DNA from: Amphritea sp. HPY | GTDB taxonomy: Bacteria > Pseudomonadota > Gammaproteobacteria > Pseudomonadales > Balneatricaceae | Direction: 5' to 3' | NCBI RefSeq assembly: GCF_050870985.1 | Contig: NZ_CP194015.1 | Location: 1,941,407-2,005,406, forward strand | DNA length: 64,000 nt | Translations under genes and position numbers: made by a program | Notes under the pieces: generated by a model | The model's input: only the letters and a program-made list of their open reading frames with translations | What the model was told of the DNA's origin: nothing | Database searches by the model: none | Part shown: piece by piece, positions 33,868 to 51,494 of the stretch | Numbering within the stretch: the stretch's first letter is position 1 | How the letters are laid out: the number at the start of each line of letters is the position of its first letter

Positions 33868-34611
33868 TTAGGTTTTCGGTTCCGAAATCACAGTTGACTC
33901 TATGTTTGGCAGATCTTTTGCGAGCTGGACATATGCTAAAGACATACTTCCTTCCTCAATATCCGAGACCTTCCATTCCCCATTGTCCATAGTAAAAGAC
34001 CAAACTGTTGATACTTCTTTGCATCGTTTGCTCCCTTCAACAACCTTGCCTGTATTTCTATCTTGAAGGTAGTCTCTCATTATTGCTTTTATTAAAATAA
34101 CAACCATAGAGTCTTCATGCTCTTTCCCTTCATTCCGATGAACAAATAGAAGGGGCTTAATGCAGGTAATTATATTTACATCACAAATATTTTTTAGCCC
34201 TTCTTTTTTCCATCTATCTAGATGCAGGAATTGTTGGTTCTGCCAATACCAATCTGTCATCCAGTTAGTGACACCAGAAAGATCTTCATTTTCCCAACCT
34301 GAGTGAACTCGGAAGAAACAATCTATTGCTCTTTCTTGGACCTTTAACCATTCAAATTTAGAACTATGTACCGCCATAAATCGTAAATCTTTTCGAGCAC
34401 GACGCTCCGATAGCTTCTCACGCAAAAAAACATAAGTGATTAACGGGAAAAAAATAATTGTCAGAATCCCGAGAACCACCTGCCCCCAAAATGTTTCAAA
34501 AACAACACTAGCGATTTTACCACCAGGTCCTGCAAATGCCGGATCAGCAAAAACAAATGCAGTTGCCACAACCAACACAACCATTACTACTACCTTTTTA
34601 TTCATATCCAT
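33868..34611 (-). CDS. Membrane-anchored protein, possibly with a Tim44-like/NTF2-like C-terminal domain.
   Basis: 247 aa. N-terminal signal or TM segment. The weak C-terminal resemblance (..WSFTMDNGEWKVSDIE..) was judged by eye only. Confidence 0.3.
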   Translation of the reverse strand: MDMNKKVVVMVVLVVATAFVFADPAFAGPGGKIASVVFETFWGQVVLGILTIIFFPLITYVFLREKLSERRARKDLRFMAVHSSKFEWLKVQERAIDCFFRVHSGWENEDLSGVTNWMTDWYWQNQQFLHLDRWKKEGLKNICDVNIITCIKPLLFVHRNEGKEHEDSMVVILIKAIMRDYLQDRNTGKVVEGSKRCKEVSTVWSFTMDNGEWKVSDIEEGSMSLAYVQLAKDLPNIESTVISEPKT

Positions 34612-34728
34612 TTCTCCAATGTATACGTCTAACAGCTAAAGTGTGCTAAAACGGTATTTGTGTCGCTAGAGGGTAGTGCTTACAATGTTATAAGCAGAAC
34701 TAATAGCACTCTGCCAGAGAGTTAACTG

Positions 34729-35670: not shown

Positions 35671-35764
35671 TACGCCCGGATAGATTTTAGTACCACCTGC
35701 TATCGAACTGACCATTGATCCATAGCTGCTCCGGTTCTGTTTGGTCGCTTACTGACACAAAGAA

Positions 35765-37237: not shown

Positions 37238-37608
37238 CTACTCTGTGATCGCTAGGTCCAGTGTTCAGCCAATAGCGCTGACTGATTGAGTTAGTGTAGA
37301 CCTGTGACGCACAATCTTCTAAGGGCTCAAAAGCCGGATATTTCCAGTATCAACCGGAAGTGATACTGGGGAGGACTCAGCGGAAGGGTATGCATACCTG
37401 GCTCCAAGATCCGCTTTGGGTCGTAAGCGGAAGTTCAAACAAGCCAGCCAGAAAGTCCGCTGTGTGCCAAGAGCGGACATGGCGCAGTACGACAGGATTA
37501 GACTCTTATCGACCCAAAGGAGACCTCCGAACCAAGCCTACTTTCAACCCGGGGCAGGCAGTGTTCCCTTCAGGCTATGGAGTTACCTTTCTCGAACTTA
37601 AATACGCG

Positions 37609-38169
37609 TTACTGAACACCAACCGGTGCCGCGCATGCTATTGGTAATACTAAGGTACATGGGAAGCGATCCATACGGTCGTACGGAGCGATGGACAATC
37701 CAGTTAACGCAGACTCGTTTGAGTATAAGTCACACGAAAGGAAATCCATGGTCGATTGTGCTGACGTGCTAGGCTCGCTCAGGACTACAACGCGGGTCTC
37801 GAACGCTTGAAATAAATTGTCCGATCGAATGATTAATTCGACATGATCCGGTTGAATCCATGCCCGTTCGGTTACTACACTTGAAATGGCGGGCGTCCGA
37901 AGCGCATCTAATGCTGTAGCCGCTCGGGCTAAGGGACCGTATTCGCCGCACCATAAATTCGCTGCGGACGGTCCGAAAACGGTAACCCCTTCTAAGTTGT
38001 ACCGTACGCGCCCGGTGGTGCGGTGAGTTGTTATTCCGACGACCCTATATTCCGTACCAATGGTATCGTTGCCGCGCTGACTCGGAGGGGCTGCATGCGC
38101 ACAGGGCGGGAGGATCAATGGTAGGCACAGAGCAATACATACTACGACTTTCTGCTGGTAAAGTGACAT
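37609..38169 (-). CDS. Secreted hypothetical protein.
   Basis: 186 aa. Signal peptide MSLYQQKVVVCIALCLPLILPPCAHA. No family recognised. Confidence 0.4.
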   Translation of the reverse strand: MSLYQQKVVVCIALCLPLILPPCAHAAPPSQRGNDTIGTEYRVVGITTHRTTGRVRYNLEGVTVFGPSAANLWCGEYGPLARAATALDALRTPAISSVVTERAWIQPDHVELIIRSDNLFQAFETRVVVLSEPSTSAQSTMDFLSCDLYSNESALTGLSIAPYDRMDRFPCTLVLPIACAAPVGVQ

Positions 38170-38457
38170 GTGAAAGCCCCTAAACTTAAAATAGTTGTGA
38201 ATTAAATCCTTGGTAGTGAGACACGCATAACTTACATCGCTCAGTTGTTACGCTGAACTTGTACTTGTCATTATAGTTAGAGTTGAAGCACTGATGTTTC
38301 TATTAACTAAAACTGCCACTATTAATACCCTTTCTATACCAGGTCGCCTGCTGGCGGTTAATTTCTATCAAATCACCACCTTCTTGTTTTGACAGCCCGG
38401 CCTCTTGAACTTTACTTACTAGTACACGTCGAACTGTCACATACAATAGGTATCTGT

Positions 38458-39372
38458 ATGAAAAGCCGCCTGCTCATAGCCACCTTACTTTTTTTGGGTG
38501 CAGCAAATGTATTCAGTGCGCCAACAACGAGTATCCTCGATTTCGAAGTCCTGCGGCACGATGATGCCAATATAAGCGTTCACGGGCCAGAGTATGTCGA
38601 GGACGGTTTTCGGCTGAAAGCGCAACACTCCGAACCTGGAAATCCACTTCGACTCAATACGCTAGGCACACTTCAGCCTGGATTTCCGGGATCAACCGCA
38701 CTGTATCAAGGCGTAGTCTTGGGAGAAATCATACTCACTGAGGTTGACGGTAAGCCCTTCGATCTGCTTTCGATTCAGCTCGCTGAACTACCGGGTCTCG
38801 ATACGTCGGGGCTGCCAATCAATAGCGGGCCTTTCGATGTTACCTTCTTTGGACAGCAAGTTGACGGTTCGTTAGTTACGAAGACTTTCATCGTCGACGG
38901 GTTCCTAACGCTAAACACCTACTCATTTTCTGGATTCACAGACTTGCTGTCAGTCAACTGGTTTCAGGGTGGCGGTGACATACCGACTCACCAGTTCGAT
39001 AACATCACTGTCGCTGTGACCCCTTTAACAGTAGATATTGATATAAAACCTGGCAGCGACCCGAACTGCTTTAATACCAATGGCCATGGTGTGATTCCTG
39101 TGGCCATTCTCGGTAATGATAATTTTGATGTGCGTAATATCGATCAAAGCAGCCTGTCTTTTTCCGGGCAGGAGGTTCGGATGAGAGGGAATAAAGGTCC
39201 ATTATGTGGGGAGGAAGATTCTAACAGCGACGGATTCTTCGATCTGGTCTGCCATTTCGAAGACGACTCCACGAACTGGTCTCCGGGCAGCTTTGGCAAT
39301 GCAACACTCACCGGAGTGATGCTCGATGGTACCGAGTTCGAGGGCACCGATTCGATCTGCATTGTTCTGTAG
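38458..39372 (+). CDS. Secreted protein carrying the same C-terminal ~110-aa domain as the LamG protein.
   Basis: Start moved to MKSRLLIATLLFLGAANVFSA, which is a signal peptide. The C-terminus DIDIKPGSDPNCFNTNGHGVIPVAILGNDNFDV...LVCHF...LDGTEFEGTDSICIV aligns with AIDIHPDSFPNSINLCSNGTVPIGILGSDTFNV...LVCHY...LDGTPIEGTDSVNIV. Confidence 0.5.
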   Translation: MKSRLLIATLLFLGAANVFSAPTTSILDFEVLRHDDANISVHGPEYVEDGFRLKAQHSEPGNPLRLNTLGTLQPGFPGSTALYQGVVLGEIILTEVDGKPFDLLSIQLAELPGLDTSGLPINSGPFDVTFFGQQVDGSLVTKTFIVDGFLTLNTYSFSGFTDLLSVNWFQGGGDIPTHQFDNITVAVTPLTVDIDIKPGSDPNCFNTNGHGVIPVAILGNDNFDVRNIDQSSLSFSGQEVRMRGNKGPLCGEEDSNSDGFFDLVCHFEDDSTNWSPGSFGNATLTGVMLDGTEFEGTDSICIVL

Positions 39373-39584
39373 CCAATCCTGAATCATAAAGTCATTGATT
39401 GAGACTAGTCCTCAACGGTGGTTAATTATTCTTGTCGAGGGTCTCCTAAGTGCCGAAAGCATACTTAACTATGACAGCTGCTCAAAGCCAAACTAGCTAT
39501 GAATAAGAAACTAAAACAAAAGATGCCTCAAAGATAGGGAATCGTCTCAAGTTCAGCTAATAACAGACTAAATAGCTGGTTTTT

Positions 39585-40181
39585 TTATTCTGTTGGTAGG
39601 CCAATCGATAAGGGAGCAGAAAAGCCACCATTTGGTACGCCAGTTATCACTGGATCGTTTGGCATCGCTTCGACAGCTGGACCGCCAAAGTTACCGCATG
39701 ACCCATTGGGAGCTAGGGAGTAGAAAGAACCGTTGACCTCGACTGGATTAATTGGAATATAAAATAAGTCTGTGACTTCCCCATTTACAATCGCAGGGGG
39801 GTATTGAAAGAGCTGTCGTGGTGTCGCATCACTTTGTCGGAACGATTCATACCAGGACGTAGAAAGTCTCACATAGCGTGGTATATCAGAACAGTCGGAT
39901 GTCATGTAAAGAAGATCTTTACTGGAAAAAGTACCTAAAGGTGTGATCTCAAATAAATACCCTGTTGAGCTCATGGCGAGTACGATTCCTTCTTCACTAA
40001 CTTCGCTTATGAGCTCTCGAACATCCACAACCACTGCTACAGCTTTTCCTGAGGAGTTAATTAACGCTGCGGGTGATAGAGTCTCCTGCTTTTTATTTGC
40101 GTGAGATGGGGGCTCACTCAATGCGAGGGATGAAGCTATGAATGCAGCGAAGGAAATCAAACCTAACTTAATTTTATTCAT
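39585..40181 (-). CDS. Secreted hypothetical protein.
   Basis: 198 aa, signal peptide MNKIKLGLISFAAFIASSLALS. Confidence 0.4.
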   Translation of the reverse strand: MNKIKLGLISFAAFIASSLALSEPPSHANKKQETLSPAALINSSGKAVAVVVDVRELISEVSEEGIVLAMSSTGYLFEITPLGTFSSKDLLYMTSDCSDIPRYVRLSTSWYESFRQSDATPRQLFQYPPAIVNGEVTDLFYIPINPVEVNGSFYSLAPNGSCGNFGGPAVEAMPNDPVITGVPNGGFSAPLSIGLPTE

Positions 40182-41074
40182 TTCGATGACTCCTTATCAC
40201 GAGGAGTTGATACTGAGTTCGATATACTAATTAGCCTAGTACATATGTAGTTGATCAGCGTGCTATCCACAAAAGACAAGCCCCCTTGTAGTGGTCAAGT
40301 TCATGATGGCACTAAAGCCCTACAGGAAGCAGCGGATTCTGCATCTCTGAAGCTGGACCATCTGGATCGGGTGACTGTGCAGGGGTAAAACAGGGGACCG
40401 AGCTCCCTCACTCTGCCAGCCTCTGGGCAAAACTGGTTGTGGGGATGGTTACGCCCGCAAACTGCAGACTGCCGCATTGCGATTGGAAGTTGCACTCGAT
40501 GTTCTGCATTAGAAATAAAAGCCACCGCTGAGATCCGCTTTGTGCCTTTTGCTGAAGCTTTGCGCAGCAAGCCAATAAGACCGCTCTGTGCCGTTAGCTG
40601 AAGTCCAAGCCGCCTTAGTGACATGTCCGTTTTGTGTCGCTAGCTGCCGTCCAGGGGCTGTTCAGGCCCTTAGAAATGGCTATTACTATGAGTGTCTAGT
40701 CAGGCTTGATGTAACGCCCACAGTTTTCATTACATTACTTAATAGCCTAATATAATATACTTTTTCAATATCTATCAATAGTATGCGTATCAACACGCTA
40801 CATTATATTAGCTGGCTCTAATATAGAAGCAATTCATGAATGTCAGTAGCCAAATTCCAACGAAAATAGATCTGTATAACGCCATTGCATAAGACTAATG
40901 GCTCATTAAATAGGTCCACCTTTACCCACACGCACACCCTCGTTGAAAAACATTGAGCATACTTATCAGCCAAATAAGGTTGTATAAAAGCTCATCAATA
41001 CTCGATTTCACAGACCGAATTCTTCATTTTATTCTCCAGCTTCCCCTTTTTGAAACCCTACCCATCTACCTTCC

Positions 41075-41182
41075 GCATGGTTACTGGGCTGTAGAGAATT
41101 TTGAAACTCTACTTCAAACTACTTGGTAGAGTTTTCTATATCGCTAGAGAGGGCATGGTTACTTGCATGTAGAGAGGTAGAG
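41075..41182. repeat. Iteron-like direct and inverted repeats at the 3' end of the Prim-Pol gene.
   Basis: GCATGGTTACTNGNNTGTAGAGA occurs twice, at 41075-41098 and 41153-41176. There are six (G)TAGAG or CTCTAC copies and a GTAGAGAATTTTGAAACTCTAC hairpin. Confidence 0.4.
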
Positions 41183-43248
41183 CTTTGATCAGAGGGATTG
41201 GGAAGATAACGTGCAAAAGCGTCTTCGAACATGGCTAATTCATAGCCATTTTTGTTCACGGTATCAATCTTTATCTGGCGAGGCTTAATCCCATAATGTT
41301 TGAGTAACCTTGCCAATGAGTTCGTAGTCAACTGTTTGCCATGATTCCATTCAGCCCAAGGACGATCCTCTAAACAGACTAACTCTCGAACTAAATCCAT
41401 TGAGTGAATCCGGCTCGATTGTTGTCCCGCAAATATCTTTTGGATATCTTGTAATAGCTGTGGCCCAATACTATCTTCATCATCCTTAACTCTCTCCAGT
41501 GCCATCATTGCCTCCCTGGCTCGAATGGGCCATTCACCTCCTAGGCAATCAGCAATGGCGAGTATTGGAAGCCAATTATCTTTGGCTCTATCGCTATTAA
41601 CTTCAGGAATCTGAGGCTCTGCAGTTTTCAAATTCTCAAAATGATCTTGAGCCCACCGAAGACACTGGCGTCGCAAGTTCTTGTTCTGTTCGAACAAGTC
41701 CAGAGGTAACCGGTCAACACTTTCACTCTGTAACTTCCGGCGCAACAATATCATAATCGACCGATCGCGAATGGTATCTGGAGGAGACTTTATCATAGCG
41801 ATAGCCATTGCTGACCATGTACTAAATCGCTTAGGCATTAGATGCTTACCATCCCCTACAGTCCTAACTACAAATGCAGTACTCCGTGTATGCCCAGAAT
41901 TAATTATTCCGCGTAATTCTTCATTACCCTTCATAAAAGTATCTCCCTCATCAATTAATAAGGTCGAATGCCATTGATCGATCGCACGAAAAATAGCTGA
42001 TGGAGTGATATTGGATGCTATGAGTGATTTGTTAACTAAGGCCCCCAATACTTCTAAGGTAGTTGTCTTACCACAACGCTTTTCAGGAGAAGATAGACAC
42101 ACTTTCGGAAAGATTCTGAAAGCATTTAAGCAGTAAGTCCCCAGTGTCCAAATAGTTAACGCTTCAGCCGCACCTGGTGGGAGTAGCGTGTAACTTTTAA
42201 AGTTGTTAAGAATAGATTCCGCAATTATCTGACCGTCTACTGAATCATGCCAAGGCTCTATGCCATCACTGAACTCGGCACTGTCTTCCTTAGCCATATC
42301 ATCAACTTTTGATTCCGACTTCGGTACTGATCTAGGCTGTAGCATGCCAGCGGAAAAACCACTATTGATTGTTCGATCCGCTTCATCAGTGTGTAAACCA
42401 CACAAACAGCCTGCATTCATTAACATCCCCCTGGCTGTTTCTTCTTTTAATTCTCCACTCCCTACAAGCTGACCAGCGGAAAATGCTGCACGATTAAGCA
42501 TATCGTTCCTGCAGCCCTCTAACGCCTTAGCAACGCTTTCACATCCACGTTCAAGAGCAGCTAAAGCGTAAGAGCTTCCATTACCTATAACCTGCTGAGA
42601 GGGCTCTGAGGCTGCCTGTTCATGTGAGGGTTCCTTTTTCACAATCATATTCAGTAACCATTCTGGAGGTTGAGGCAGAGGAGTATTGAACAAATCTGTA
42701 AGAAATTCGTACCGATTTCCGTTTGAATGAATGGATGGAGGAGCGACAATGTAACCACCATCACCCCTTACATCAAAGCAACTTTTAACATTACAACGAG
42801 TTCGAATTGGTACGTCATCAGGAATAACAAAGAATAGGTGTAGCCCTTTCCCTGTTTGCACGACAGGTCCTGCAGGAAGCTCTCCTCCGTTGTCCGAAAG
42901 CAACTTTCCCCAGACTTCTAAATTATCAACATCAACGACAAAAAAACCATTGATCTTTCCTGTACATAAACCAATGTTGTAATCATGTCCGTTCCACATC
43001 TGTTTAACTAATTCAGGATCCTTTTCAGCATCTTTAAATCCATGCTTCGTTGCAGGTTGCTTGCCCTTAGGTTTCAGAGGAAAAACAGAATATCCCTGCT
43101 CAGCGTATTGGACCGCAGCTTCCGAAAGAGATGTACAAGATTCTGAACTCGAACTCTCTGGTTCGGAGGAGTGCAACACACTATCTTTGGTCTGCTGATC
43201 AAGGAGGTTACTGTCTTGTGTGATTATGTTCTTTTCCATTGTCATCAT
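41119..43248 (-). CDS. Bifunctional DNA primase/polymerase (Prim-Pol) fused to a P-loop NTPase. Island replication protein of the P4-alpha/D5 class.
   Basis: 709 aa. The N-terminal Prim-Pol signature is YSVFPLKPKGKQPATKHGFKDA...NIGLCTGKINGFFVVDVDN. The Walker A motif is SPEKRCGKTTTL. Confidence 0.75.
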   Translation of the reverse strand: MMTMEKNIITQDSNLLDQQTKDSVLHSSEPESSSSESCTSLSEAAVQYAEQGYSVFPLKPKGKQPATKHGFKDAEKDPELVKQMWNGHDYNIGLCTGKINGFFVVDVDNLEVWGKLLSDNGGELPAGPVVQTGKGLHLFFVIPDDVPIRTRCNVKSCFDVRGDGGYIVAPPSIHSNGNRYEFLTDLFNTPLPQPPEWLLNMIVKKEPSHEQAASEPSQQVIGNGSSYALAALERGCESVAKALEGCRNDMLNRAAFSAGQLVGSGELKEETARGMLMNAGCLCGLHTDEADRTINSGFSAGMLQPRSVPKSESKVDDMAKEDSAEFSDGIEPWHDSVDGQIIAESILNNFKSYTLLPPGAAEALTIWTLGTYCLNAFRIFPKVCLSSPEKRCGKTTTLEVLGALVNKSLIASNITPSAIFRAIDQWHSTLLIDEGDTFMKGNEELRGIINSGHTRSTAFVVRTVGDGKHLMPKRFSTWSAMAIAMIKSPPDTIRDRSIMILLRRKLQSESVDRLPLDLFEQNKNLRRQCLRWAQDHFENLKTAEPQIPEVNSDRAKDNWLPILAIADCLGGEWPIRAREAMMALERVKDDEDSIGPQLLQDIQKIFAGQQSSRIHSMDLVRELVCLEDRPWAEWNHGKQLTTNSLARLLKHYGIKPRQIKIDTVNKNGYELAMFEDAFARYLPNPSDQSSTSLHASNHALSSDIENSTK

Positions 43249-43487
43249 GCAGCTCCTTTACCCGAATCATATAGTTCCCCATCACGTGCAGTATCTACTC
43301 GGCTCTGCTCGATAAACGCCCGATAATCAGCCATCCGATACCGAACTGAAGATCCAATTTTTATGAATGGAATGCCTTGTTTGAGATAGCGATCATTGCG
43401 TAGCCGAGACAGAGAAAAGCCTGTCAGCTCCGCGATTTGATGTTCATCTAGTAAAACGTCAGTTTCGTTGTGTATGTTGTTATTCAT
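43245..43487 (-). CDS. AlpA-family phage transcriptional regulator/excisionase.
   Basis: GGAGG RBS before ATG 43487. The HTH LDEHQIAELTGFSLSRLRNDRYLKQGIPFIKIGSSVRYRMAD is typical of AlpA/Xis. The stop overlaps the Prim-Pol start. Confidence 0.7.
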   Translation of the reverse strand: MNNNIHNETDVLLDEHQIAELTGFSLSRLRNDRYLKQGIPFIKIGSSVRYRMADYRAFIEQSRVDTARDGELYDSGKGAA

Positions 43488-43637
43488 GTATGCCTCCATC
43501 CACATAGGTTTGTATTGAATGATGGTCTACAAAGTCAGCGGCTAATAGATAGCAGGGATTGGTAGGTTAGGGTAAAAAGGGATGGGTAGGTTAACTGAGG
43601 GTTACTGCTGGCGGGGCTTTCAAGGATTGGTAGGTTT

Positions 43638-44582
43638 TTAATCACTTTTAGGGCTACCACCTCTTTTTTTCCAATTTATCATCGTGGCTATGCGCTTAAT
43701 TGCTTCGCCTGAGAGTTTACTCGGGTGGTCTTTAAGCCACTTTTCTATGGCCTGTTTAGGTGACTTCTTGATTACTTTTTGGTCCTGAAAATATTCCCAA
43801 GCTTCAATGGCTAAATCTAACTCTTGGCTATACCTCGCGTTTTCAGGATTCAAGTATTCCGGTTTGTGGTTTATTTCTGGAAGACTTGCCTGCTCTACAA
43901 ACCTTTTTAGTTCCTCGTCATAGTCAAACCTTTTCGATTCTAGCCACTTCAAGAATGATTTTGGCTGGTTATGAGGCTCATTAAGTTCACCTACCTCAAT
44001 GCTTCTGGATGCAACGTGAAAACGCTCCATATATTGATCTGGCACGCTAAATCCGTAACCAAACTCGTCCTCCATATTTTCCAATTTTATAGTGTAAGGA
44101 TTTAAGCCTAATGAAAGACAAATCCCCTCCTCAACAGACCAGTACGACATGCGGCTCCAAAGCTCATATTTTGCTCTATTCACTGGAATATTCCACCATT
44201 CCCGATAGGGCTTGAACTCTTCTAGTTCTTGTAATGTTTTTTCTCGTAAAGCGATGCAACGCTCAATAAGCTCCTTCCTCACCAGTGCGCTTAATTCCTC
44301 CTGAAAGCTGTCTTCATTAGACTCTTGCCCTTCGATGTCTTCTGCACTGCCATTTTTATCTACCAATCTGTAAGAAAGGATCCCGTTATTTAAGAATTCG
44401 GCCCGAAGCAGGATATCTCGAAGCGCTCGGTCAGATAACAGGTCAAGGTTCTCTAAAGTGCCTAGTCTTCGCCATAGGAAACGGTATTGCTCATTACATT
44501 CATCCAAGTCTTCTGGAATTTTTGGTCCTGGCTCTTCATTCATCTGTATGCTGCCTCGGGCCCCCTTCAGTAGAGATATCAA
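43638..44582 (-). CDS. Hypothetical island protein (orphan).
   Basis: 314 aa, acidic/charged, no recognisable motifs. Sits between the integrase and alpA. Confidence 0.4.
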   Translation of the reverse strand: MISLLKGARGSIQMNEEPGPKIPEDLDECNEQYRFLWRRLGTLENLDLLSDRALRDILLRAEFLNNGILSYRLVDKNGSAEDIEGQESNEDSFQEELSALVRKELIERCIALREKTLQELEEFKPYREWWNIPVNRAKYELWSRMSYWSVEEGICLSLGLNPYTIKLENMEDEFGYGFSVPDQYMERFHVASRSIEVGELNEPHNQPKSFLKWLESKRFDYDEELKRFVEQASLPEINHKPEYLNPENARYSQELDLAIEAWEYFQDQKVIKKSPKQAIEKWLKDHPSKLSGEAIKRIATMINWKKRGGSPKSD

Positions 44583-44638
44583 ATCAGGCCATGATAATGA
44601 CGACTATTCGGAACATATCCTCAACTTGCTAAAACCAG

Positions 44639-45946
44639 TCAGTGTTTATTAATTGGCACCACGTTGCTGACCTTGTCTTCATTCTCCAAAATATTTTCAA
44701 GCGTCGTAGCCCACTGGTCCAAGTAGCGCCTTTTCTGCTTAATATAGCCACTATTGATGTAAACCTCGGTCACATCACCAAAGCTATGATTGAGTACTGC
44801 TTTTATATCCTCCCGTCGCACTTCTTCATTACTTAACATTGTAGCTACAGTGCGTCGAAGGTCATGGGGCGTGAATCCTTTATCTTGATCAATGCCTAAC
44901 TTATCGAAGTCTCTGCGAAGTAGATTTGTGACTGTTTGGGGCGCTATATGGTTGTTAGGATTACGCGGAGCAGGGACCAAATATGGGGATCCAGCAGACA
45001 ATTCCTTCATCTTCTCCAAAGTACAGATCGCTAACGATGATAATGGAACAATATTGGATCCTTTCCTATTTTTTACGCTCGCCCTGGGAATTGTTAAGGT
45101 TTTCTGATCCCAGTCGATCCAGTCCCATCGTGCTGTAACAATTTCACTACGTCTTTGGGCAGTCACTAATAACAGTTTGAGAGCCAGTTGAACTAGAGGC
45201 GGTATGCTTGTCTTTTCTAAACCAAACCAAAAACATCGTATCTCCGCTTCCGAAAGTGTCCGCTCTACGGGGATATACTGATAATCGGTAGATACATCTG
45301 TACACGGATTCTGGCCAATATACTCTTCGTCTAATGCAAACCGCATGAGGGCTTTCAGTCTCTGCAGTACGTTGTTTGCTACTTTGTCGCCATGCTTGTT
45401 AGAGATGCCACGAATGAATGTCCTAACATCTACTCGTTGAATGTCAGTGACCAATGCATCTGTCCAATAGGGGCGTATGTGCTTTTCGATAGTCCATCGG
45501 TATTGTTTCAGGGTGTCTTTAGATAGGTGTTTGCCGCCTTTACCCTTTTCTGCAGCCATTTGCCGCTTTTCATGATGATTGTAGTACTCTTCAATTAGTC
45601 TTCTCATAGATGGTTTACGAGCCATCTGTAGCTTTTGGTGAGCAGCTTCTGCTTTGGCTTGTTGTCTTTCTTGTATGGGATCGCTTTTGTTAGCCAGTAT
45701 GCTTCGTGCAATACCTCGTGCCTTTTCCACAGCTAACACATCAACTTTGCCAATCCTGGAAAATTTCATTCTAGGATTACCTTCTGGTCGATACCCTACG
45801 ACATAGGACTTTTTACCACTGGGGTAGAGCCGCACGCCGAACCCAGCTAACTTGCCATCCCAGATATATTGGACGCTCGGGCCTTCTGGATCATATGTTG
45901 CGGACTCAATTAATGCCTTGGTGAGATTATCTTTCTTCTTGGACAT
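44639..45946 (-). CDS. int: Tyrosine-type site-specific integrase (P4-like, with an N-terminal arm-binding DUF4102-type domain).
   Basis: 435 aa. N-terminal YIWDGKLAGFGVRLYPSGKKSYVVGYR. C-terminal catalytic region ..HDLRRT..., ..LNHSFGDVTEVYI... Confidence 0.9.
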   Translation of the reverse strand: MSKKKDNLTKALIESATYDPEGPSVQYIWDGKLAGFGVRLYPSGKKSYVVGYRPEGNPRMKFSRIGKVDVLAVEKARGIARSILANKSDPIQERQQAKAEAAHQKLQMARKPSMRRLIEEYYNHHEKRQMAAEKGKGGKHLSKDTLKQYRWTIEKHIRPYWTDALVTDIQRVDVRTFIRGISNKHGDKVANNVLQRLKALMRFALDEEYIGQNPCTDVSTDYQYIPVERTLSEAEIRCFWFGLEKTSIPPLVQLALKLLLVTAQRRSEIVTARWDWIDWDQKTLTIPRASVKNRKGSNIVPLSSLAICTLEKMKELSAGSPYLVPAPRNPNNHIAPQTVTNLLRRDFDKLGIDQDKGFTPHDLRRTVATMLSNEEVRREDIKAVLNHSFGDVTEVYINSGYIKQKRRYLDQWATTLENILENEDKVSNVVPINKH

Positions 45947-45969
45947 ACAGCTACCAATTGATCAACCGA

Positions 45970-45990
45970 AAAGTAAGCAATAAGTAAGCA
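45970..45990. repeat. attR-like direct repeat of the island, followed by extra AAGTAAGCA-like motifs.
   Basis: Exact 21-mer shared with 26465-26485. AAGTAAGCA-like motifs recur at 46006 and about 46065. Confidence 0.55.
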
Positions 45991-46130
45991 GATTGGATGA
46001 AGAAGTAAGCAAACAGGAATAAGCAGCAAGAAATCAAACTTACTTAACGTGCTGTATATTAAGAATAGATGTGAAAGCAAGTAAGCGCAAAGAATCAACT
46101 TTACATACTACCCGAATATGTAAAAGAGCA

Positions 46131-46200
46131 GTGGCTAGACCGCCGCTGCGCGGCTCGCTAGAACGGAAAGCAAGCTTTCCTGCTAGTGGCTAGAAAAAGC
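46131..46200. repeat. Left copy of a roughly 70-bp inverted repeat pair bracketing the caspase cassette.
   Basis: GTGGCTAGACCGCCGCTGCGCGGCTCGCTAGAACGGAAAGCAAGCTTTCCTGCTAGTGGCTAGAAAAAGC. Its reverse complement is found at 49561-49632 with about 90% identity. It contains internal hairpins (GGAAAGC..GCTTTCC, GCCGC-TGC-GCGGC). Confidence 0.8.
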
Positions 46201-46358
46201 AACTTCAAAAACATAAAACCGCCTGCAGGCGGTTTTCTTTATTATGGGAGTCATGACGCCCTAATAATGTGCAAAAAATTGGTTGCTAAAATGTTGAGGA
46301 ACGAAAACAGCAAACCGTTTTTTATCCTTATTAATTAGCTTGTTATGCCGAATTCCAC

Positions 46359-46934
46359 TTATTTAGGCTTCTCTTCGTGAACAAGCATGTTCATGAATTT
46401 TGCAAACCGCCTTAGTCTGGTTTCGGGTTTCTTTGCACTTATCAATCCGTACGCGATAACATAACGACTCGATTTATTAAGAGTTTCAAAAAACTCTTTT
46501 ACATTCGGCTTGCTCTCCAGAGCTGCCAGGAAATCCGCAGGCACTTCCATTTCACTTACCACATAGGCTTTTTCCCAACGACCGTCAGCTTTTGCAGCAC
46601 GAATATGCACGAGCCCTGATTCCATCATCCGCCCCTCACTTATCAAACGTTCCGCATGTTCTGTGTTCCTTTTAGACCAGTTGCTTCGCTTTTTTCTGGG
46701 AGTAATGCGCTGAAGATAGGCTTGATCATCGATTGACCTCTTAACACCGTCGATCCAACCCCAGCATAGAGCCTCGATCACGACATCATTCCAAGTTACG
46801 CTCTGAATTCCAGTATTTTTCTTGTATATCTTCACCCATAGTTCACTTTCACAGGCGTGATTCACCTTGAGCCACTGGCCGAGACCTTTCGATGATTCAA
46901 ATGTCATAATTCTCAATGGATCTGGTTCAGGCAT
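46359..46934 (-). CDS. YdeI/OmpD-associated family protein.
   Basis: 191 aa. Resembles the YdeI-like (DUF1801-type) family. Confidence 0.5.
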   Translation of the reverse strand: MPEPDPLRIMTFESSKGLGQWLKVNHACESELWVKIYKKNTGIQSVTWNDVVIEALCWGWIDGVKRSIDDQAYLQRITPRKKRSNWSKRNTEHAERLISEGRMMESGLVHIRAAKADGRWEKAYVVSEMEVPADFLAALESKPNVKEFFETLNKSSRYVIAYGLISAKKPETRLRRFAKFMNMLVHEEKPK

Positions 46935-47012
46935 CTAATTAGATTCTCTTCGGCATAACGCCTAAAGCAGCGGGCGCACGTTAGTGCGTCCGACTGCCTT
47001 TTTTTGTTATGC

Positions 47013-47519
47013 CTATTTAGTGGTCTTAAGCTCAAAGTTACCACCTATTTTAACTGAAGCTTCTCTTTGGGATTTTATATAGTAGTCAGCGTCTAGCGGT
47101 GACTGACGACCTAAAACCTTACTTGAGCATTTTCCACACTTATGGGTAGGGTCTTCATTGGACCAGGCCAGCAATGGGAATAAGTCTTTTGATTGTGCCC
47201 AGCACGTTGGACAATGTGGACTGCCTGTAGGGTCACCATCGTCATTGACGTAATAGCGGGCACCAAGAAAGCCAACAGTTTCTCCTTGCGTTTTTATCTT
47301 TTCCTCTAATGATGAGATCGTTTCATCTTTATCAATCAAATCCAATTTGATATTTGCAACATCCACTTTTGCATCAGCTAGTGCTCCTAGCAATTCAGCC
47401 ATATGGAGTTTAACTTCGGCCTGCTCTAGGCTAGACCCGCTGTCTTTAATAAGGCGAGCGATTTCGGTTGCAGTCTTAATACTTCCCAGTGCTGCGCCAA
47501 TGGTTGCTAAATCTGGCAT
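47013..47519 (-). CDS. Coiled-coil protein with a C-terminal CxxC...CxxC zinc ribbon.
   Basis: AAGGAG RBS 7 nt before ATG 47519 (MPDLATIGAALGSIK...). CPTCWAQ....CGKCSS zinc ribbon. No family assigned. Confidence 0.45.
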   Translation of the reverse strand: MPDLATIGAALGSIKTATEIARLIKDSGSSLEQAEVKLHMAELLGALADAKVDVANIKLDLIDKDETISSLEEKIKTQGETVGFLGARYYVNDDGDPTGSPHCPTCWAQSKDLFPLLAWSNEDPTHKCGKCSSKVLGRQSPLDADYYIKSQREASVKIGGNFELKTTK

Positions 47520-47627
47520 CCTATCTCCTTGGGGGCATAACGCCTCGTTAAGAGGCGATAAATTGTTGGCTAAAATTAGCGACGAAGGAGCAAAAGCCAA
47601 CTGTTTTTTGTCCTTTTAAACGACTTG

Positions 47628-49097
47628 TTAACTGCGCTTTACTGAGTGCCAATAAGGAAATTTTAGTTTGGAACTTTCATCAATATCAATACTGGACTGT
47701 AAAGATATATATTTTTTGGGAATCATCATCTCCATGGAAAGTTTATCCATGAATGTATCATAACGCATTGAGTCAAAGGATACTTTTCCGTCCAAAGTGT
47801 ACTTCTCCCAGCCTTTTTCACCATACAGTATATTTTCACCATCAAAATAAACTTCTTTGATAAGAATGCTTCCTTTTTTGTTCTCTTTAACCGTTAACTC
47901 TATCGCTGCATCTTCAATTGATTTCCCCGGTATTATGTAGAAACTATTACTGAATGGTAATAGTAATTCAGCCATAAAATCAAAGGCGGGTTTAAATTCA
48001 GGATGGATATCTAAGTCAAAAATAGTGTTGAACATTGTGACTTTAAAGGAGTCCCTAAAGTCACCTTTAGAATTAAAAAATATTTCAAACAGCATTCCTT
48101 CAAGAATGCAAATCTGCTTGGCGATTGGTATTCCATTTACTTTTGATTTGAAGTTATTCAAGTACTCAATGGCACTACCTGAATCACCGCATGCAGCTTG
48201 ATAAATGTTTCTTCCCAACACAAATAACGTATCATCATCGGACTTTGAAATTATAATGGACGACAAGCTATTAATCGCAGGGTTTTGCGTATACCAGTTA
48301 TGACTCTTCAATTTTGAAATTATTTTATGGCAGGCAATAGTCGAATCTAATACGTAAAGCTCATCAGCTATAGCCAATTTGCTATATTTATCAATTCTAT
48401 TCCCAAGACTTAAATTAAAATAAAAATCACCCGTTAGAGATGTATGCTCCCATGAGGTTTGCTTTCCTTGGGTAACAACTGATAAAGAGTTTCTAACTTT
48501 TTTAAACACATCTTCGATTGTTATATCTGGCTTATTTATATGTTTTAATAACGATTCAGTATAGGCGCCATTATTCCCAAGGCCGTCGGAAGCTATCTCC
48601 CCTGGAGATGTTGAATAAGCAATAAGAGTTCCTTTTGGAGCAAACATAGGCGCTAATGAACTCGCTTTTGCGGATCTAGCCCAACCTTTTTCGCAAGGGT
48701 TATCCCTGCAAGCGTCAAGAATGACAAGATTAGTCTTATTGGAGCAAGAGTCCATTGCTTCAATCAAGCGATTCAAAGGGTAAGATGTATACCTTACGGA
48801 GGACTCATCGATAAAGGATGAGTTAATAGCTGTTATATAATTTTCACCATCAATTTGTATACCGTGACCAGCAAAATAGAATAACCCCACATCATTGCTA
48901 TTTAGACTGTCTTTAAACGATGATACTGCTCTATCTAGATCCTCTATATTACAATCTACGTGTTTTATAACCGTGAATCCAAGTTTATCCAATGCCGTAG
49001 CCATGTCATTAGCATCATTTACAGCATTGATTAGTTTTGTTATGCCATTTTGATATTCGCCATTTCCGACTATCAAAGCAATCATTTTTCTATTCAT
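47628..49097 (-). CDS. Caspase (peptidase C14) domain protein with an uncharacterised ~270-aa C-terminal domain.
   Basis: N-terminal IALIVGNGEYQNGITKLINAVNDANDMATAL...FYFAGHGIQIDGENY...LVILDACRDNP carries the catalytic His in AGHG and the catalytic Cys in DACR. AT-rich coding sequence. Confidence 0.7.
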   Translation of the reverse strand: MNRKMIALIVGNGEYQNGITKLINAVNDANDMATALDKLGFTVIKHVDCNIEDLDRAVSSFKDSLNSNDVGLFYFAGHGIQIDGENYITAINSSFIDESSVRYTSYPLNRLIEAMDSCSNKTNLVILDACRDNPCEKGWARSAKASSLAPMFAPKGTLIAYSTSPGEIASDGLGNNGAYTESLLKHINKPDITIEDVFKKVRNSLSVVTQGKQTSWEHTSLTGDFYFNLSLGNRIDKYSKLAIADELYVLDSTIACHKIISKLKSHNWYTQNPAINSLSSIIISKSDDDTLFVLGRNIYQAACGDSGSAIEYLNNFKSKVNGIPIAKQICILEGMLFEIFFNSKGDFRDSFKVTMFNTIFDLDIHPEFKPAFDFMAELLLPFSNSFYIIPGKSIEDAAIELTVKENKKGSILIKEVYFDGENILYGEKGWEKYTLDGKVSFDSMRYDTFMDKLSMEMMIPKKYISLQSSIDIDESSKLKFPYWHSVKRS

Positions 49098-49144
49098 ACA
49101 TCCCTACAGCTTGAAGAACACGAAAGCAGTTAACATTTTAATTG

Positions 49145-49363
49145 TGCGCATGCGCATATGTACGGAGTGAATGACTCTGATAGATAGCAATAACTATTTG
49201 ATACTAAAGGTCTGTTGAGCAAAATCCATCTCCGGTGATTCCATGAAAACGCGCATGCGCGTTATTCTTTTTGCGTTGCGCATAAGTTCCGATGCGCAAT
49301 TTCGTAACCCTCTGATACTAGTTACTTTTCTGCAGAACTGCCAGATGCAAATACGCATGCGCT
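49145..49363. promoter_or_regulatory. Cluster of GCGCATGCGC-type palindromes upstream of the caspase gene. Putative operator array.
   Basis: TGCGCATGCGCA at 49145-49156. AACGCGCATGCGCGTT, a perfect 16-bp palindrome, at 49249-49264. TGCGCA half-sites at about 49277 and 49293. ACGCATGCGCT at 49353-49363. Confidence 0.4.
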
Positions 49364-49560
49364 CCGTGCAAACACGCAATAACTGTCGTGAATCAAAACT
49401 TAACTGTATACCCGCTCAGGAATCATGATGGCCGCAAGAGAGCGACTTAAGAAGAGCTTCCGAGCCATGAATCTCAGCTTGTTGGGCTTCGTTTCACTCA
49501 AACCAACCTACAGTTCTTACGGAGTGAAATGTTTAAATTGGCAGACTGTTTCTTAAGAAG

Positions 49561-49632
49561 GCTTTTACGCTTTTTCTAGCCACTAGCAGGAAAGCTTGCT
49601 TTCCGTTCTAGCGAGCCGCGTAGCGGCGTTCT
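49561..49632. repeat. Right copy of the inverted repeat pair bracketing the caspase cassette.
   Basis: Reverse complement of the 46131-46200 element. Confidence 0.8.
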
Positions 49633-49681
49633 AGCTAGTCGAACTTGTTCGACGGTCTAACGGCTATCCCTCTACAGCCTT

Positions 49682-50944
49682 TCAGCCTTCTACCACCTGC
49701 TCTTTACAGATCACGTATCCATTTTTACCGTTACGTTTTGCATCGTACATCGCTTCATCCGCATAGGCTTTGAGGGTATCAAAATCATTGCCGTGCTGGC
49801 CGTATACGGCGACCCCCATACTCAGGGTCGCCTTGCGAATTTCGCCATTGATCAGGAAAGGACGGTTAAACTGCTTAACGATACGTTCGGCGATACTGAC
49901 TACCTCTTCATCCTCTTCCAGCACCATCAGCATGATAAATTCATCTCCGCCAAAGCGCGCCACGGTGTCCATATCCCGGCATTCAATCGCTAAGCGCTCC
50001 GAAACTTTGATCAGCAGCTCGTCGCCGGCAGAGTGGCCCATGGTATCGTTAATCTGCTTAAAGCCATCCAGATCGATAAACAACAGGGCAACCTTGCCTC
50101 CCCGACGCTCCTGATGTGCCATCGCTTTCTTCAGGCGATCTTCAAACAGAGTACGGTTGGGCAGTCCGGTCAGGCCATCGTAAAACGCCTGTGCAGCAAG
50201 CTTTTGATTCAGATTTTCTAGTTCCTGAGTACGCTTTTTAACTTCCGCTTCGAGCATCTGATCACGGCTTTCGATCTGTTCCAGCATGCCATTGAACACC
50301 GTCGCCAGATCACCGATCTCGTCATTTTCCCGAACCCTCGCCCTTAACGAGTAGTTTCCCAGGTCTTTAACTTCGCGCGCCACGTTAGACAGATGCACGA
50401 TAGGACCCGACAGTTGCTTTTGCAGCCAGAACGAAAGGGCCAGGGAGAACATCACCGAACCAATCAGTACAAATATCGCGACCGCAAGGTAGATCTCGAT
50501 CTGACTGTAGAAAGAGGCTTTATCTCCCACCAGCAGCAAGCGGCCTACTCTCTGGCGATCAAGATACAACTCGCGCTCGATAACCACGTAATTGCTATAC
50601 AAGGTTCCGATATCAATCTGATCAAAACTCTGATCACCGTAGCTGGCCATCACTTCGCCAGTGATATCTGTCACTCTGGCAAAGCGGATGCTCATATCCG
50701 CGTTAAGGATGTTAATCAATTCGCCGGTGGCATCCTTATCATCAAAGGCGACTGCCGCGGTGATGTTTTCAGCCACGACTTCGCCTAGTAGCGTGACCCG
50801 TTCACGCAGCTGACGTTCAGCCGAATAATACTCATTCATGGTAAACATCGCGGTAGCAAAGATTATAGATACCGTACTGATCAGCATGATCAGCGCGACA
50901 AATTTCTGCGCAATCGTCAGTCGGGAGAACAATGATTTAATCAT
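49682..50944 (-). CDS. Membrane-bound diguanylate cyclase, YfiN/TpbB-like (periplasmic sensor, HAMP, GGDEF).
   Basis: Two TM helices, a HAMP domain, and the GGDEF active site RFGGDEF. Start taken at MIKSLF.., overlapping the upstream gene by 8 nt. Confidence 0.85.
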   Translation of the reverse strand: MIKSLFSRLTIAQKFVALIMLISTVSIIFATAMFTMNEYYSAERQLRERVTLLGEVVAENITAAVAFDDKDATGELINILNADMSIRFARVTDITGEVMASYGDQSFDQIDIGTLYSNYVVIERELYLDRQRVGRLLLVGDKASFYSQIEIYLAVAIFVLIGSVMFSLALSFWLQKQLSGPIVHLSNVAREVKDLGNYSLRARVRENDEIGDLATVFNGMLEQIESRDQMLEAEVKKRTQELENLNQKLAAQAFYDGLTGLPNRTLFEDRLKKAMAHQERRGGKVALLFIDLDGFKQINDTMGHSAGDELLIKVSERLAIECRDMDTVARFGGDEFIMLMVLEEDEEVVSIAERIVKQFNRPFLINGEIRKATLSMGVAVYGQHGNDFDTLKAYADEAMYDAKRNGKNGYVICKEQVVEG

Positions 50945-51494
50945 TGGATGTCTCCTCATTCCGAATCAGCTTTGCCAGACGCAGCAATCGTGAACTGATT
51001 TTCAGACCCGAGTTCTCCAATGAATCCAGATTAATTTCGAAGCGCAGCTTATTGCCCGCCAGAAAGAAGTTAATATTACCCACTTCATGGGCAAACCCAC
51101 GGCGTTCGCCGACGATCAGAATACCTTCAGCATCCACTTCAGAAAGATACTTAACCCAAAGGTCAGCCTCTTCCACCAGAATAAACAGCAGATCACACTG
51201 CCATTCTTCCCCTGGATCAACAGCGGTAAGCCGAATAGGCTTGTTTTCAACCTGTTTGCCTTTAAGCGCAGGACGGGCAATTTCAACGAACCGTTCACTG
51301 CTGGAACAAAACACAAACTCAGAGCTTTCCGTTTTACGGGTAATATCCGGCCACTGGGTATAGCTTATGAAGTTAGTCAGGAAAGCGATCTTGATCTGGT
51401 ATTCCCTGTCTCCGGGCGCAGCGATACTGCCGCTGATACCGCATAGCAGTATCAGCGTAGTCAGTAAAACCCTAAAACCCGATGATAGTTTCAA
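50937..51494 (-). CDS. YfiR-family (DUF4154) periplasmic protein.
   Basis: 185 aa with a signal peptide. Operonic with the YfiN-like diguanylate cyclase. Confidence 0.65.
   Translation of the reverse strand: MKLSSGFRVLLTTLILLCGISGSIAAPGDREYQIKIAFLTNFISYTQWPDITRKTESSEFVFCSSSERFVEIARPALKGKQVENKPIRLTAVDPGEEWQCDLLFILVEEADLWVKYLSEVDAEGILIVGERRGFAHEVGNINFFLAGNKLRFEINLDSLENSGLKISSRLLRLAKLIRNEETSND

Follow-up and report, generated by a model that had tools for sequence, protein, structure and literature searches.

By the definition of Cury et al (2016, PMC4889954), an integrase-less cassette array of the CALIN type has two or more attC sites that are clustered within 4 kb on the same strand, with no intI nearby. 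Sedentary chromosomal integrons carry anti-phage defence genes among their cassettes (bioRxiv 10.1101/2024.07.02.601686, in which the word 'caspase' does not occur). In type IV Thoeris, as presented in PMC13243611 and PMC13434031, the effector is caspase-like and an adjacent TIR gene makes N7-cADPR (Rousset et al, 2025). In Canu the caspase domain is followed by an Ig-like domain, and the system further comprises a partner, CanB, and a gated MBL-fold nuclease, CanC (Tuck et al, PMC12799240).

The locus investigated here lies within a 64-kb stretch of DNA, all of which was analysed and which we call the window. As the preliminary description had stated, it carries three co-directional genes, coding for a caspase protein, a zinc-ribbon protein and a YdeI-like protein, all on the minus strand (Table 1). 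That description had taken the three as one functional module and their pairing as an architecture. This view is not upheld: the genes are not co-conserved and each has its own attC site. It is very probable that the locus is a small integrase-less integron cassette array (CALIN) rather than an operon that evolved as a unit, and that its genes are functionally independent. The three attC sites had been missed in the preliminary description.

Table 1. Features of the locus and its surroundings, in window coordinates.
Feature	Position	Strand	Details
Right repeat copy	49569..49635	-	67 nt, REP-like
Non-coding stretch	49135..49568	-	434 nt, right repeat to start of cassette 1
5' boundary of caspase cassette	49128..49134	-	GTTAACT, core-site-like; G/TTAACTGC
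Cassette 1 (caspase), extent	49133-47541	-	first of three, head to tail
Caspase gene	47628-49097	-	489 aa
attC1	47534..47633	-	about 100 nt; covariance model 29.3 bits, E 7e-5
Cassette 2 (zinc-ribbon), extent	47540-46959	-	second
Zinc-ribbon gene	47013-47519	-	168 aa
attC2	46952..47012	-	61 nt; covariance model 45.4 bits, E 6e-9
Cassette 3 (YdeI-like), extent	46958-46257	-	third
YdeI-like gene	46359-46934	-	191 aa, YdeI/OmpD-associated (OmdA) family
attC3	46250..46348	-	about 99 nt; covariance model 26.4 bits, E 4e-4
Terminator-like hairpin	46215..46236		bidirectional, intrinsic; between attC3 and left repeat
Left repeat copy	46134..46200	+	67 nt, REP-like
Direct repeat, first copy	26465-26485		21 nt, exact
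Direct repeat, second copy	45970-45990		21 nt, exact
P4-type integrase	44639-45946		adjoins direct repeat

An attC site was taken to be an imperfect palindrome of about 55-140 nt with an inverse core ending in AAC (R''), a core beginning with GTT (R'), L boxes paired with bulged bases and a variable centre. Sites of this form are present at the locus, the core of attC3 having decayed to GTC. The covariance model used to search for them was built from 19 training sites of other organisms, with no window sequence included and two orthologous sites omitted, and was run over both strands of the whole window (128 kb) with filters off. Its three best matches in the window are attC1, attC2 and attC3, each directly 3' of one gene and on the strand of that gene. 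When 94 kb of Amphritea japonica were searched with the same model there was no match at E <= 1, and the model recovered attC sites outside the training set at loci L083, L096, L095, L082 and L001. Where foreign attC sites are compared with the window, the similarity stops exactly at GGCGTTA.

The structure of attC2 is canonical: GGCATAAC pairs with GTTATGCC, the R boxes pairing at 8 of 8 positions, the spacer is unpaired, the L boxes are bulged and the tip varies; the fold has -21.2 kcal/mol (z -6.7). Its ends are those of the attC that follows a 49%-identical zinc-ribbon homologue (L083), while the central stem differs. In attC1, R'' overlaps the stop codon of the caspase gene (AGTTAACAA) and R' reads GGCG/TTATGCC; two Marinomonas sites, the attC behind the caspase gene and one other, align with it, the similarity again ending at the core. 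The score of attC1 is moderate only. The third site, attC3, is partly decayed, with an R' box of GTCATGA in place of GTT and a poor fold on its own, and is 80-85% identical to repeated sites of Pseudoalteromonas replicons in the plasmid collection.

A tblastn search of the 64-kb window with Vibrio IntI gave a best E of 0.97, so that no IntI was found, and the one integrase in the vicinity has an Arm-DNA-binding domain and is of the P4 type. A complete integron, with intI and attI beside the array, is not present within the window. With three attC sites within 1.4 kb on the minus strand and no integron integrase in the window, the locus is thus a CALIN. Like the integron cassettes described by Cury et al (2016, PMC4889954), those of the locus each have a single promoterless ORF, G/TT boundaries and cargo of unknown function unrelated to resistance genes, and no intI is close by. 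What sets the locus apart is a host REP-like repeat with one copy on either side, and a first cassette that is preceded by a lone GTTAAC core without attC or attI. In the 434-nt stretch before that core we looked for attC, attI and intI and recognised none; it contains three GCGCATGCGC palindromes, at 49146, 49251 and 49353, spaced by about 103 nt. We envisage that the cassettes would have been stacked by attC recombination, with an integron integrase provided in trans either by another integron of this genome or in an earlier host, and that the array would then have come to rest between genes, where two Amphritea REP-like copies are also found. The locus as such is an ordinary integrase-less cassette array. 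It illustrates that cassette stacking can mimic an operon, since three co-directional neighbours within repeats are here three separate passengers.

The separate histories of the genes are seen outside the window. The 5' boundary of the caspase cassette, GTTAACTGC, is common to the window, to Marinomonas (L082) and to a metagenome array (L096), in the latter two of which it follows a complete attC, and the neighbours are different in each of the three. In Oceanospirillum maris a caspase homologue lies downstream of two attC sites with an AIPR gene between them. In the chromosomal integrons of Vibrio, homologues of the zinc-ribbon gene stand as solo cassettes (one of these arrays starts right at intI beside rplT), and they are found in further arrays (separate cassettes at L083, L086-L089 and L095). 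The 25 nt upstream of the YdeI-like gene are identical to those of a 91%-identical homologue (L092/L093), and in L092 that homologue is followed by an attC-like site. For each of the three genes, therefore, the same gene with its boundaries occurs in other arrays beside different neighbours. Gene-neighbourhood conservation had been set beforehand as the test that could refute a module, and the three genes proved not to be co-conserved. By tblastn, 80 caspase loci contained no zinc-ribbon or YdeI homologue; in the zinc-ribbon and YdeI homologue loci examined a caspase was never alongside; and no neighbour of the caspase gene is conserved across the 32-33 loci examined (32 of them full-length), unrelated genes following even in its closest relatives (84%, 78% and 74% identity). 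The adjacency of the three genes is explained by integron cassette stacking, each gene having its own attC.

A three-component defence or abortive-infection system, made of the caspase, zinc-ribbon and YdeI-like proteins and mobilised between the inverted repeats, would account for the common strand, the short gaps, the single terminator 3' of the last gene, the repeats that enclose exactly these genes and the foreign composition of at least the caspase gene. We regard it as very improbable, given the lack of co-conservation, the separate cassettes found elsewhere and a GC content that differs between the genes (about 0.36, 0.43 and 0.48). In addition, YdeI homologues from several orders retain 85-94% identity and stand in housekeeping, unrelated contexts. 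The block had been described as AT-rich, which holds for the caspase gene (0.34-0.38) and not for the zinc-ribbon gene (0.43) or the YdeI-like gene, whose 0.48 is genome-like. The sole terminator of the block is the hairpin AAAACCGCC-TGCA-GGCGGTTTT that had been described just inside the left repeat; it scores as a terminator on both strands. The common strand and this one terminator suggest that the three genes may be co-transcribed here, and as far as the sequence goes some local functional interaction among their products is conceivable.

The locus adjoins an island border, as had been noted. The 21-nt exact direct repeats and the P4-type integrase that they adjoin fit an integrative island with its end just left of the locus. 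That the block is foreign and mobile was also borne out, in the form of a cassette array.

The inverted repeats that bracket the three genes are real, although the copies are 67 nt long and 97% identical, where about 70 bp and about 90% had been given. With arms that are 97% complementary, they are the only long inverted repeat of the window, and 100 shuffles gave no match. Each copy has two GC-rich hairpins between TCTAGC boxes, and the CTAGTGGCTAGAAAAAGC end faces the array. Related elements occur at at least five places in 94 kb of Amphritea japonica, where they are dispersed, intergenic and variable in their hairpins. The 67-nt repeats are copies of this REP-like family and at most candidate ends of a mobile cassette. 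A transposon bounded by them would be expected to have a target-site duplication beyond its repeats and a cognate transposase, and to recur as a unit elsewhere. At the outer ends no such duplication was seen, a transposase was seen neither within the block nor next to it, an exact search of metagenome and viral contigs gave no copy of the repeat, and the right repeat region had no match in plasmids.

REP/REPIN-type dispersed repeats have a GTAG-type REP head and a RAYT gene, and the MITEs of published MITE-flanked integrons are 288-439 nt long. The 67-nt repeats are like REP/REPIN and MITE/IMU elements in being short, structured and intergenic, in having several copies in the genus and in forming an inverted pair that flanks accessory genes. 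They differ from REP/REPIN, as no GTAG-type head or RAYT gene is in view, and from the MITE/IMU integron fragments in their length and in lacking a target-site duplication. The 97% identity of the two copies, set against the variable family of A. japonica, is not accounted for by chance placement.

The pair might alternatively be a non-autonomous mobile unit, of the kind of a MITE- or IMU-bracketed integron fragment, that brought the array, its 434-nt leader and the terminator to this place. This would be compatible with the cassette array and would add a second layer of mobility. It is suggested by two copies that are nearly identical and inverted, with the same ends inward and the array precisely enclosed, and by an inverted pair of A. 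japonica (27182-27224 and 28419-28515) that encloses two small genes in the same orientation, although that pair is just about 80% alike by eye. The missing duplication, transposase and further copies speak against it, as does the look of the family, that of a common REP-like repeat scattered between genes and variable in its hairpins, and we consider such a unit unlikely.

Taking a caspase-hemoglobinase fold with a catalytic His-Cys dyad as the definition of Peptidase C14, the 489-aa caspase protein belongs to this family: residues 6-226 match Pfam Peptidase_C14 (PF00656, E 1.8e-38), and the dyad reported previously is intact, His78 (AGHG) and Cys130 (DACR) being invariant in 73 homologues. 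The domain is closest to the human MALT1 paracaspase (Foldseek E 2.5e-15, profile search E 2e-17), as is reported for CanA (PMC12799240). The C-terminal domain was correctly judged to be of unknown type; its 255 aa form an alpha-helical repeat and a small alpha/beta part, with no Pfam family and no close fold in the PDB. Among the 150 best representatives carrying this domain the N-terminal partner is a caspase in 65, PIN_8 in 40 and TIR in 4, and the motifs NWYxQNPA, FVLGRNIYQ and GMxFExYF together with R348 and K352 are invariant across the caspase, PIN and TIR fusions.

This swapping suggests a single-protein sensor-effector immune gene. Single-protein sensor-effectors with swappable effector domains are exemplified by Avs/AVAST. 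The likeness lies in one conserved non-catalytic domain with alternative protease, PIN-nuclease or TIR fusions; the caspase here differs in that it has neither a STAND NTPase nor a TPR, nor any sensor fold that is known. Judged by these features, the caspase gene most likely encodes a self-contained sensor-effector protein, for which it is a candidate, and it alone of the three genes is a plausible candidate for a stand-alone anti-phage suicide protease. We tentatively propose, as a possibility somewhat short of even, that the cassette belongs to a family, as yet undescribed, of immune or abortive-infection genes whose products act as single proteins and have in common a new C-terminal domain of about 250 aa with a sensor or regulatory role. 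In such a protein the C-terminal domain may sense an infection cue or keep the enzyme inactive; a trigger would then switch on the paracaspase-like domain, probably via oligomerisation as in MALT1 and other caspases, and the protease would cleave host or phage proteins, with growth arrest and abortive infection as the outcome.

More than 4,500 caspase homologues were found, spread patchily across phyla. Homologues occur on plasmids and in predicted prophage regions, and the hosts of the family include Klebsiella, Citrobacter, Vibrio cholerae and Pseudomonas. Among the genes next to them are AIPR, MmeI, Mrr, type I RM, HipA and transposases, while roughly every second neighbour in other genomes is an ordinary metabolic gene. 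PADLOC, which had been suggested as a check, matched only the generic caspase domain, and none of the defence models matches the full-length protein. The metabolic neighbours and the missing full-length match would also suit a non-immune protein, either a toxin-like addiction gene product that stabilises mobile elements or cassette arrays, or a protease under regulation that serves stress or development, and toxin-antitoxin cassettes do occur in chromosomal integron arrays (YoeB/YefM in the Vibrio array L087). We think this improbable: no antitoxin-like partner is conserved, the caspase/PIN/TIR swapping and the RM, AIPR and Thoeris-like neighbours are typical of immune sensor-effectors, and the patchy spread speaks against a housekeeping role. 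The preliminary description was right not to see a housekeeping peptidase, and its suggestion of a conflict or abortive-infection protein is reasonable.

With the integron defence cassettes (bioRxiv 10.1101/2024.07.02.601686) the sensor-effector candidate shares its form, a compact single-gene candidate immune protein carried as a cassette, and relatives lie in arrays with AIPR, AbiH and toxin-antitoxin cassettes. With type IV Thoeris, as covered in PMC13243611 and PMC13434031, it would share a bacterial caspase-like protease as a cell-killing or growth-arresting effector, a role that is here a candidate one. Type IV Thoeris itself was ruled out: there is no TIR gene at the locus or in 31 of the 33 homologue loci, and TIR neighbours are confined to Pseudomonas loci, where the homologue adjoins a pair, resembling type IV Thoeris, of TIR and a different, short caspase of 328 aa. 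The caspase proteins side by side in Pseudomonas are thus two distinct ones. Canu was ruled out on the helical and alpha/beta C-terminal domain and on the zinc-ribbon and YdeI neighbours, none of them conserved. A gasdermin system was ruled out as no neighbour is gasdermin-like, in line with the earlier statement that no gasdermin, NACHT or TPR system is present, and the EACC1-associated caspase (NCBIfam NF047832) was ruled out at 63 bits against a cut-off of 140. The family is large, widely transferred and uncharacterised; the caspase gene is a concrete single-gene candidate for phage-defence screens, and its C-terminal domain is a new candidate sensor domain to seek in other proteins.

The zinc-ribbon protein has no Pfam match. 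Its CPTC...CGKC motif and N-terminal helical or coiled-coil region are kept in 23 homologues, as described, while its length is 168 aa and not 169. The start codon is the ATG at 47519, preceded by the RBS AAGGAG, and the NCBI proteins of Amphritea sp. HPY include one of 168 aa with 100% identity to the product. A 195-aa ORF with a TTG start was rejected as an artefact of the mechanical ORF call because its first 27 codons read through attC1. The YdeI-like identity of the third protein was confirmed by its match to PF13376 (OmdA; E 1e-19, 70.6 bits against a gathering cut-off of 25.6), which places it in this family.

The block consists of a caspase gene, a zinc-ribbon gene and a YdeI-like gene lying between two inverted repeats, the positions of which are listed below together with those of the neighbouring island. 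The preliminary description of these features held up well: the repeats enclose three reverse-strand genes, the caspase has its His/Cys dyad, and the zinc ribbon, the YdeI-like protein and the hairpin are all present. The claim that the whole block is AT-rich applies to the caspase gene (GC 0.34-0.38), the only markedly AT-rich one of the three, but not to the zinc-ribbon (0.43) or YdeI (0.48) genes. No second long inverted repeat was found in the window and shuffled sequence gave no matches. Amongst 73 homologues His78 and Cys130 of the caspase are invariant. The zinc-ribbon and YdeI proteins are both 100% identical to proteins recorded at NCBI for Amphritea sp. HPY. The zinc-ribbon protein has no match in Pfam; its gene starts at the ATG at 47519, which is preceded by AAGGAG, and a 195-aa ORF starting with TTG was discarded as an artefact that reads through the site behind the caspase gene.

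Positions of the features of the block and of the adjacent integrative island (window coordinates)
Feature	Position	Strand	Details
Inverted repeat arms	46134-46200 and 49569-49635		67 nt, 97% complementary
Terminator-like hairpin	46215-46236		bidirectional
Caspase gene	47628-49097	-	489 aa; Pfam Peptidase_C14, E 1.8e-38
Zinc-ribbon gene	47013-47519	-	168 aa; strongly conserved helical N-terminus and CxxC...CxxC ribbon
YdeI/OmdA gene	46359-46934	-	third gene of the block
Caspase cassette	49133-47541
Zinc-ribbon cassette	47540-46959
YdeI cassette	46958-46257
attC1 (behind caspase gene)	47534-47633	-	covariance model 29.3 bits, E 7e-5; second match in window
attC2 (behind zinc-ribbon gene)	46952-47012	-	covariance model 45.4 bits, E 6e-9; top match in window
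attC3 (behind YdeI gene)	46250-46348	-	covariance model 26.4 bits, E 4e-4; third match in window
Integrative island	26465-46013		~19.5 kb; 21-nt exact direct repeat AAAGTAAGCAATAAGTAAGCA at 26465 and 45970 as ends
P4-type integrase of island	44639-45946
Prim-Pol/DUF3631 primase of island	41119-43248

It had been proposed that the three genes form one defence or abortive-infection module. The caspase has more than 4,500 homologues, and full-length relatives of ~480-490 aa occur in Gamma-, Alpha- and Betaproteobacteria, Acidobacteriota, Bacteroidota, Campylobacterota and Firmicutes. In the 80 caspase loci that were fetched, tblastn found no zinc-ribbon or YdeI homologue near the caspase, and all-against-all clustering of the neighbours in 32 full-length caspase loci gave no shared neighbour except in two near-identical Pseudomonas loci. 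The immediate co-directional neighbours are mutually unrelated, and the gene that comes after the caspase differs amongst the closest relatives. In locus L081 the gene after the 84%-identical caspase encodes an unrelated 195-aa protein, with an integrase and a type I restriction-modification (RM) system alongside; in the metagenome array L096 (78% identical) an unrelated gene follows, and in Marinomonas (74% identical) one for a 386-aa protein. The 195-aa gene of L081 equals the mechanical zinc-ribbon ORF in length, yet the two are unrelated, and it was rejected as a counterpart. Conversely, zinc-ribbon homologues never adjoin a caspase in the loci examined, and YdeI homologues have housekeeping or metal-efflux surroundings. 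The three genes are therefore not co-conserved, an outcome that the proposal itself had named as refuting it, and a three-gene module is not supported.

The first clue to how the genes are arranged came from the 79-nt spacer separating the zinc-ribbon and YdeI genes, used as a blastn query. Its zinc-ribbon side matches the sequence that follows a 49%-identical zinc-ribbon homologue in one locus (L083), and its YdeI side the sequence that precedes a 91%-identical YdeI homologue in another (L092). On the gene strand the spacer reads GGCATAACAAAAAAAGGCAGTCGGACGCACTAACGTGCGCCCGCTGCTTTAGGCGTTATGCC and is a textbook attC site, with R boxes ending in AAC and starting with GTT, bulged L boxes, a variable tip and a predicted fold of -21.2 kcal/mol (z -6.7). 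Downstream of the caspase stop codon lies a site that can be aligned over its length with two Marinomonas elements, the one following the caspase gene there and a further cassette site; this similarity breaks off right at GGCGTTA, where recombination takes place. The 5' boundary of the caspase cassette, G|TTAACTGC, is also found in Marinomonas and in L096, in both of which it comes directly after the complete attC of the preceding cassette.

A covariance model of attC was built from 19 sites of Vibrio, Marinomonas, Thalassotalea and metagenome arrays, leaving out the window and two orthologous sites to avoid circularity. When the whole window was scanned on both strands with filters off, the three best matches lay one directly behind each of the three genes. 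The model also recovered held-out sites in other arrays, amongst them one following the YdeI homologue of L092 and two upstream of the caspase homologue of Oceanospirillum maris. In 94 kb of Amphritea japonica it gave no match at E <= 1. The third site, behind the YdeI gene, is an 80-85% match to repeated sites in Pseudoalteromonas replicons of the plasmid collection. At the gathering threshold Rfam found nothing in the window; relaxing it to E <= 1 for the locus gave just one match, to RybB, which is sub-threshold and overlies attC2. A search with a Vibrio IntI query found no integron integrase in the window. IntegronFinder defines a CALIN as at least two clustered attC sites without a nearby intI (PMC4889954); since the window has three clustered sites and no intI, the locus is a CALIN of three cassettes by that definition, and as a whole a fresh instance of this known kind. 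In Vibrio chromosomal integrons the zinc-ribbon homologues are solo cassettes, one such array starting at an intI beside rplT.

The YdeI/OmdA protein is 85-94% identical in Moritella, Colwellia, Thalassotalea, Pseudoalteromonas, Paraglaciecola, Hahella and Porticoccus, and in L092 its homologue has an unchanged 25-nt leader and an attC-like site after the gene. It looks like a cassette that has been passed around widely.

The 67-nt repeats gave no match to the covariance model and lack an R''/R' pair at attC spacing, so they were rejected as attC sites. Each copy has two GC-rich hairpins between TCTAGC boxes, with the CTAGTGGCTAGAAAAAGC end facing the array. The repeat core has no exact match in metagenome or viral contigs, and the 434-nt leader with the right repeat has none in plasmids. 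A plasmid search matched a 94-kb Amphritea japonica replicon bearing housekeeping genes, which holds at least five related intergenic elements with identical boxes and differing hairpin sequences. This argues that the 67-nt repeats are members of a REP-like family also present in A. japonica and not dedicated cassette ends. That assignment leaves unexplained why the two copies in the window are 97% identical when the family is variable, and why in A. japonica a second inverted pair also surrounds two small genes; both would fit a role of the repeats in the insertion or mobilisation of the array, but with no target-site duplication visible at them we consider such a role unlikely and retain the REP-like assignment. 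The A. japonica pair (27182-27224 and 28419-28515) encloses a redoxin and a hypothetical gene and, like the pair in the window, is oriented inward. The replicon, pJCM14782, is annotated as a plasmid, yet carries the core genes carAB, ftsH, nusA, infB, pnp, tyrS and cytochrome oxidases; by its gene content it would be either a chromid or a misassigned piece of chromosome.

The 434-nt non-coding leader of the caspase cassette contains the palindrome GCGCATGCGC three times (49146, 49251 and 49353; span 49146-49362) at ~103 nt spacing, one copy having a mismatch, as well as TTGCGCA half-sites. Only two further copies, each with one mismatch, are found elsewhere in the window. The palindromes may form an array of operators or be left over from a different element.

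The locus itself is ordinary; what merits modest follow-up is the caspase gene with its exchangeable C-terminal domain. For the protease domain the nearest relative is the MALT1 paracaspase (profile E 2e-17, Foldseek E 2.5e-15). For the C-terminal 255 residues, which belong to no Pfam family, a small alpha/beta part behind a helical repeat is predicted with very high confidence (pLDDT 96). When this domain alone was used in an exhaustive HMMER search, 580 representative clusters were obtained. Amongst the best 150 of these, its N-terminal partner is a caspase in 65, a PIN_8 PIN-like nuclease in 40 and a TIR domain in 4; a further 4 have another N-terminal region of at least 60 aa, and 37, which may be fragments, have little or no N-terminal extension. 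D245, NWYxQNPA, FVLGRNIYQ, GMxFExYF, R348, K352 and P390 are invariant in all fusion classes. The PIN_8 fusions P0382, P0397, P0415, P0421 and P0427 are proteins of ~600-720 aa, while full-length examples of the TIR fusions (P0395, P0446, P0417, P0433) have ~405-415 aa.

Single-protein sensor-effector immune genes show this pattern, in which one conserved domain without catalytic activity is combined with exchangeable enzymes that damage the cell. The genomic surroundings agree with it: members of the caspase family are scattered patchily over the phyla and occur as integron cassettes, on plasmids and within predicted prophage regions; AIPR, MmeI, Mrr, type I RM, HipA and transposases are found amongst their neighbours; and in Pseudomonas a Thoeris-like pair lies next to the homologue. 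GenBank phages gave no match to the caspase. We lean slightly towards the caspase being a stand-alone abortive-infection protease, the C-terminal domain of which would either sense a trigger arising from infection or hold the enzyme off. As such it would be an uncharacterised candidate amongst the compact defence genes borne by integrons (bioRxiv 10.1101/2024.07.02.601686). We found no stand-alone caspase defence gene of comparable type in the literature, which is not proof of absence.

Several described systems were considered for the window caspase and rejected. It has no TIR partner, as type IV Thoeris would need, neither the Ig-like domain nor the gated MBL nuclease that are features of canu (PMC12799240), and scores 63 bits against a cut-off of 140 for the EACC1-associated caspase type. 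A gasdermin system, already discounted in the preliminary description, was ruled out on partner genes and domain content. In the suggested check with DefenseFinder or PADLOC, PADLOC matched the generic caspase domain and nothing beyond it.

In Oceanospirillum maris (L001, 6041-8241) a gene of the abortive-infection family AIPR lies between two attC matches upstream of the 73%-identical caspase homologue, so a known Abi gene is an integron cassette in that homologue's array. In the two Pseudomonas loci (L009/L010, 11528-13005) the caspase homologue is directly followed by a gene for a 328-aa caspase-only protein, which overlaps a 163-aa TIR gene; this short caspase and the TIR look like a type IV Thoeris pair. 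A second TIR protein is encoded 2.8 kb upstream.

The integrative island to the left of the locus was correctly recognised, as the P4-type integrase and the 21-nt direct repeat next to it fit an island ending just before the block. On the other side of the block lies a GGDEF gene (49682-50959). It is inserted at the 3' end of a 549-aa gene (24775-26424), no tRNA or tmRNA being found as its target, and also carries an SPFH/Band-7 protein, a TPR protein, a LysR regulator and an M20 peptidase. Between its TPR and Tim44-like genes a 30-nt stub on the reverse strand (33844-33873), ACCTAACAATCG...GTGGCGTTAGGAG, is the fourth-best match to the attC model (18.4 bits, E 0.04); with R''/R' boxes and almost no centre, it is perhaps an attC that has collapsed, perhaps a match by chance. 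A direct repeat of 102 nt, 83% identical, is found twice within the island (30892-30993 and 37379-37480), 6.5 kb apart. Outside the island, downstream of a gene ending at 21176, ~7-8 tandem copies of the 23-nt unit AAAGGCATTACCGGCACTTAATA (21130-21313) look like iterons or an array of binding sites.
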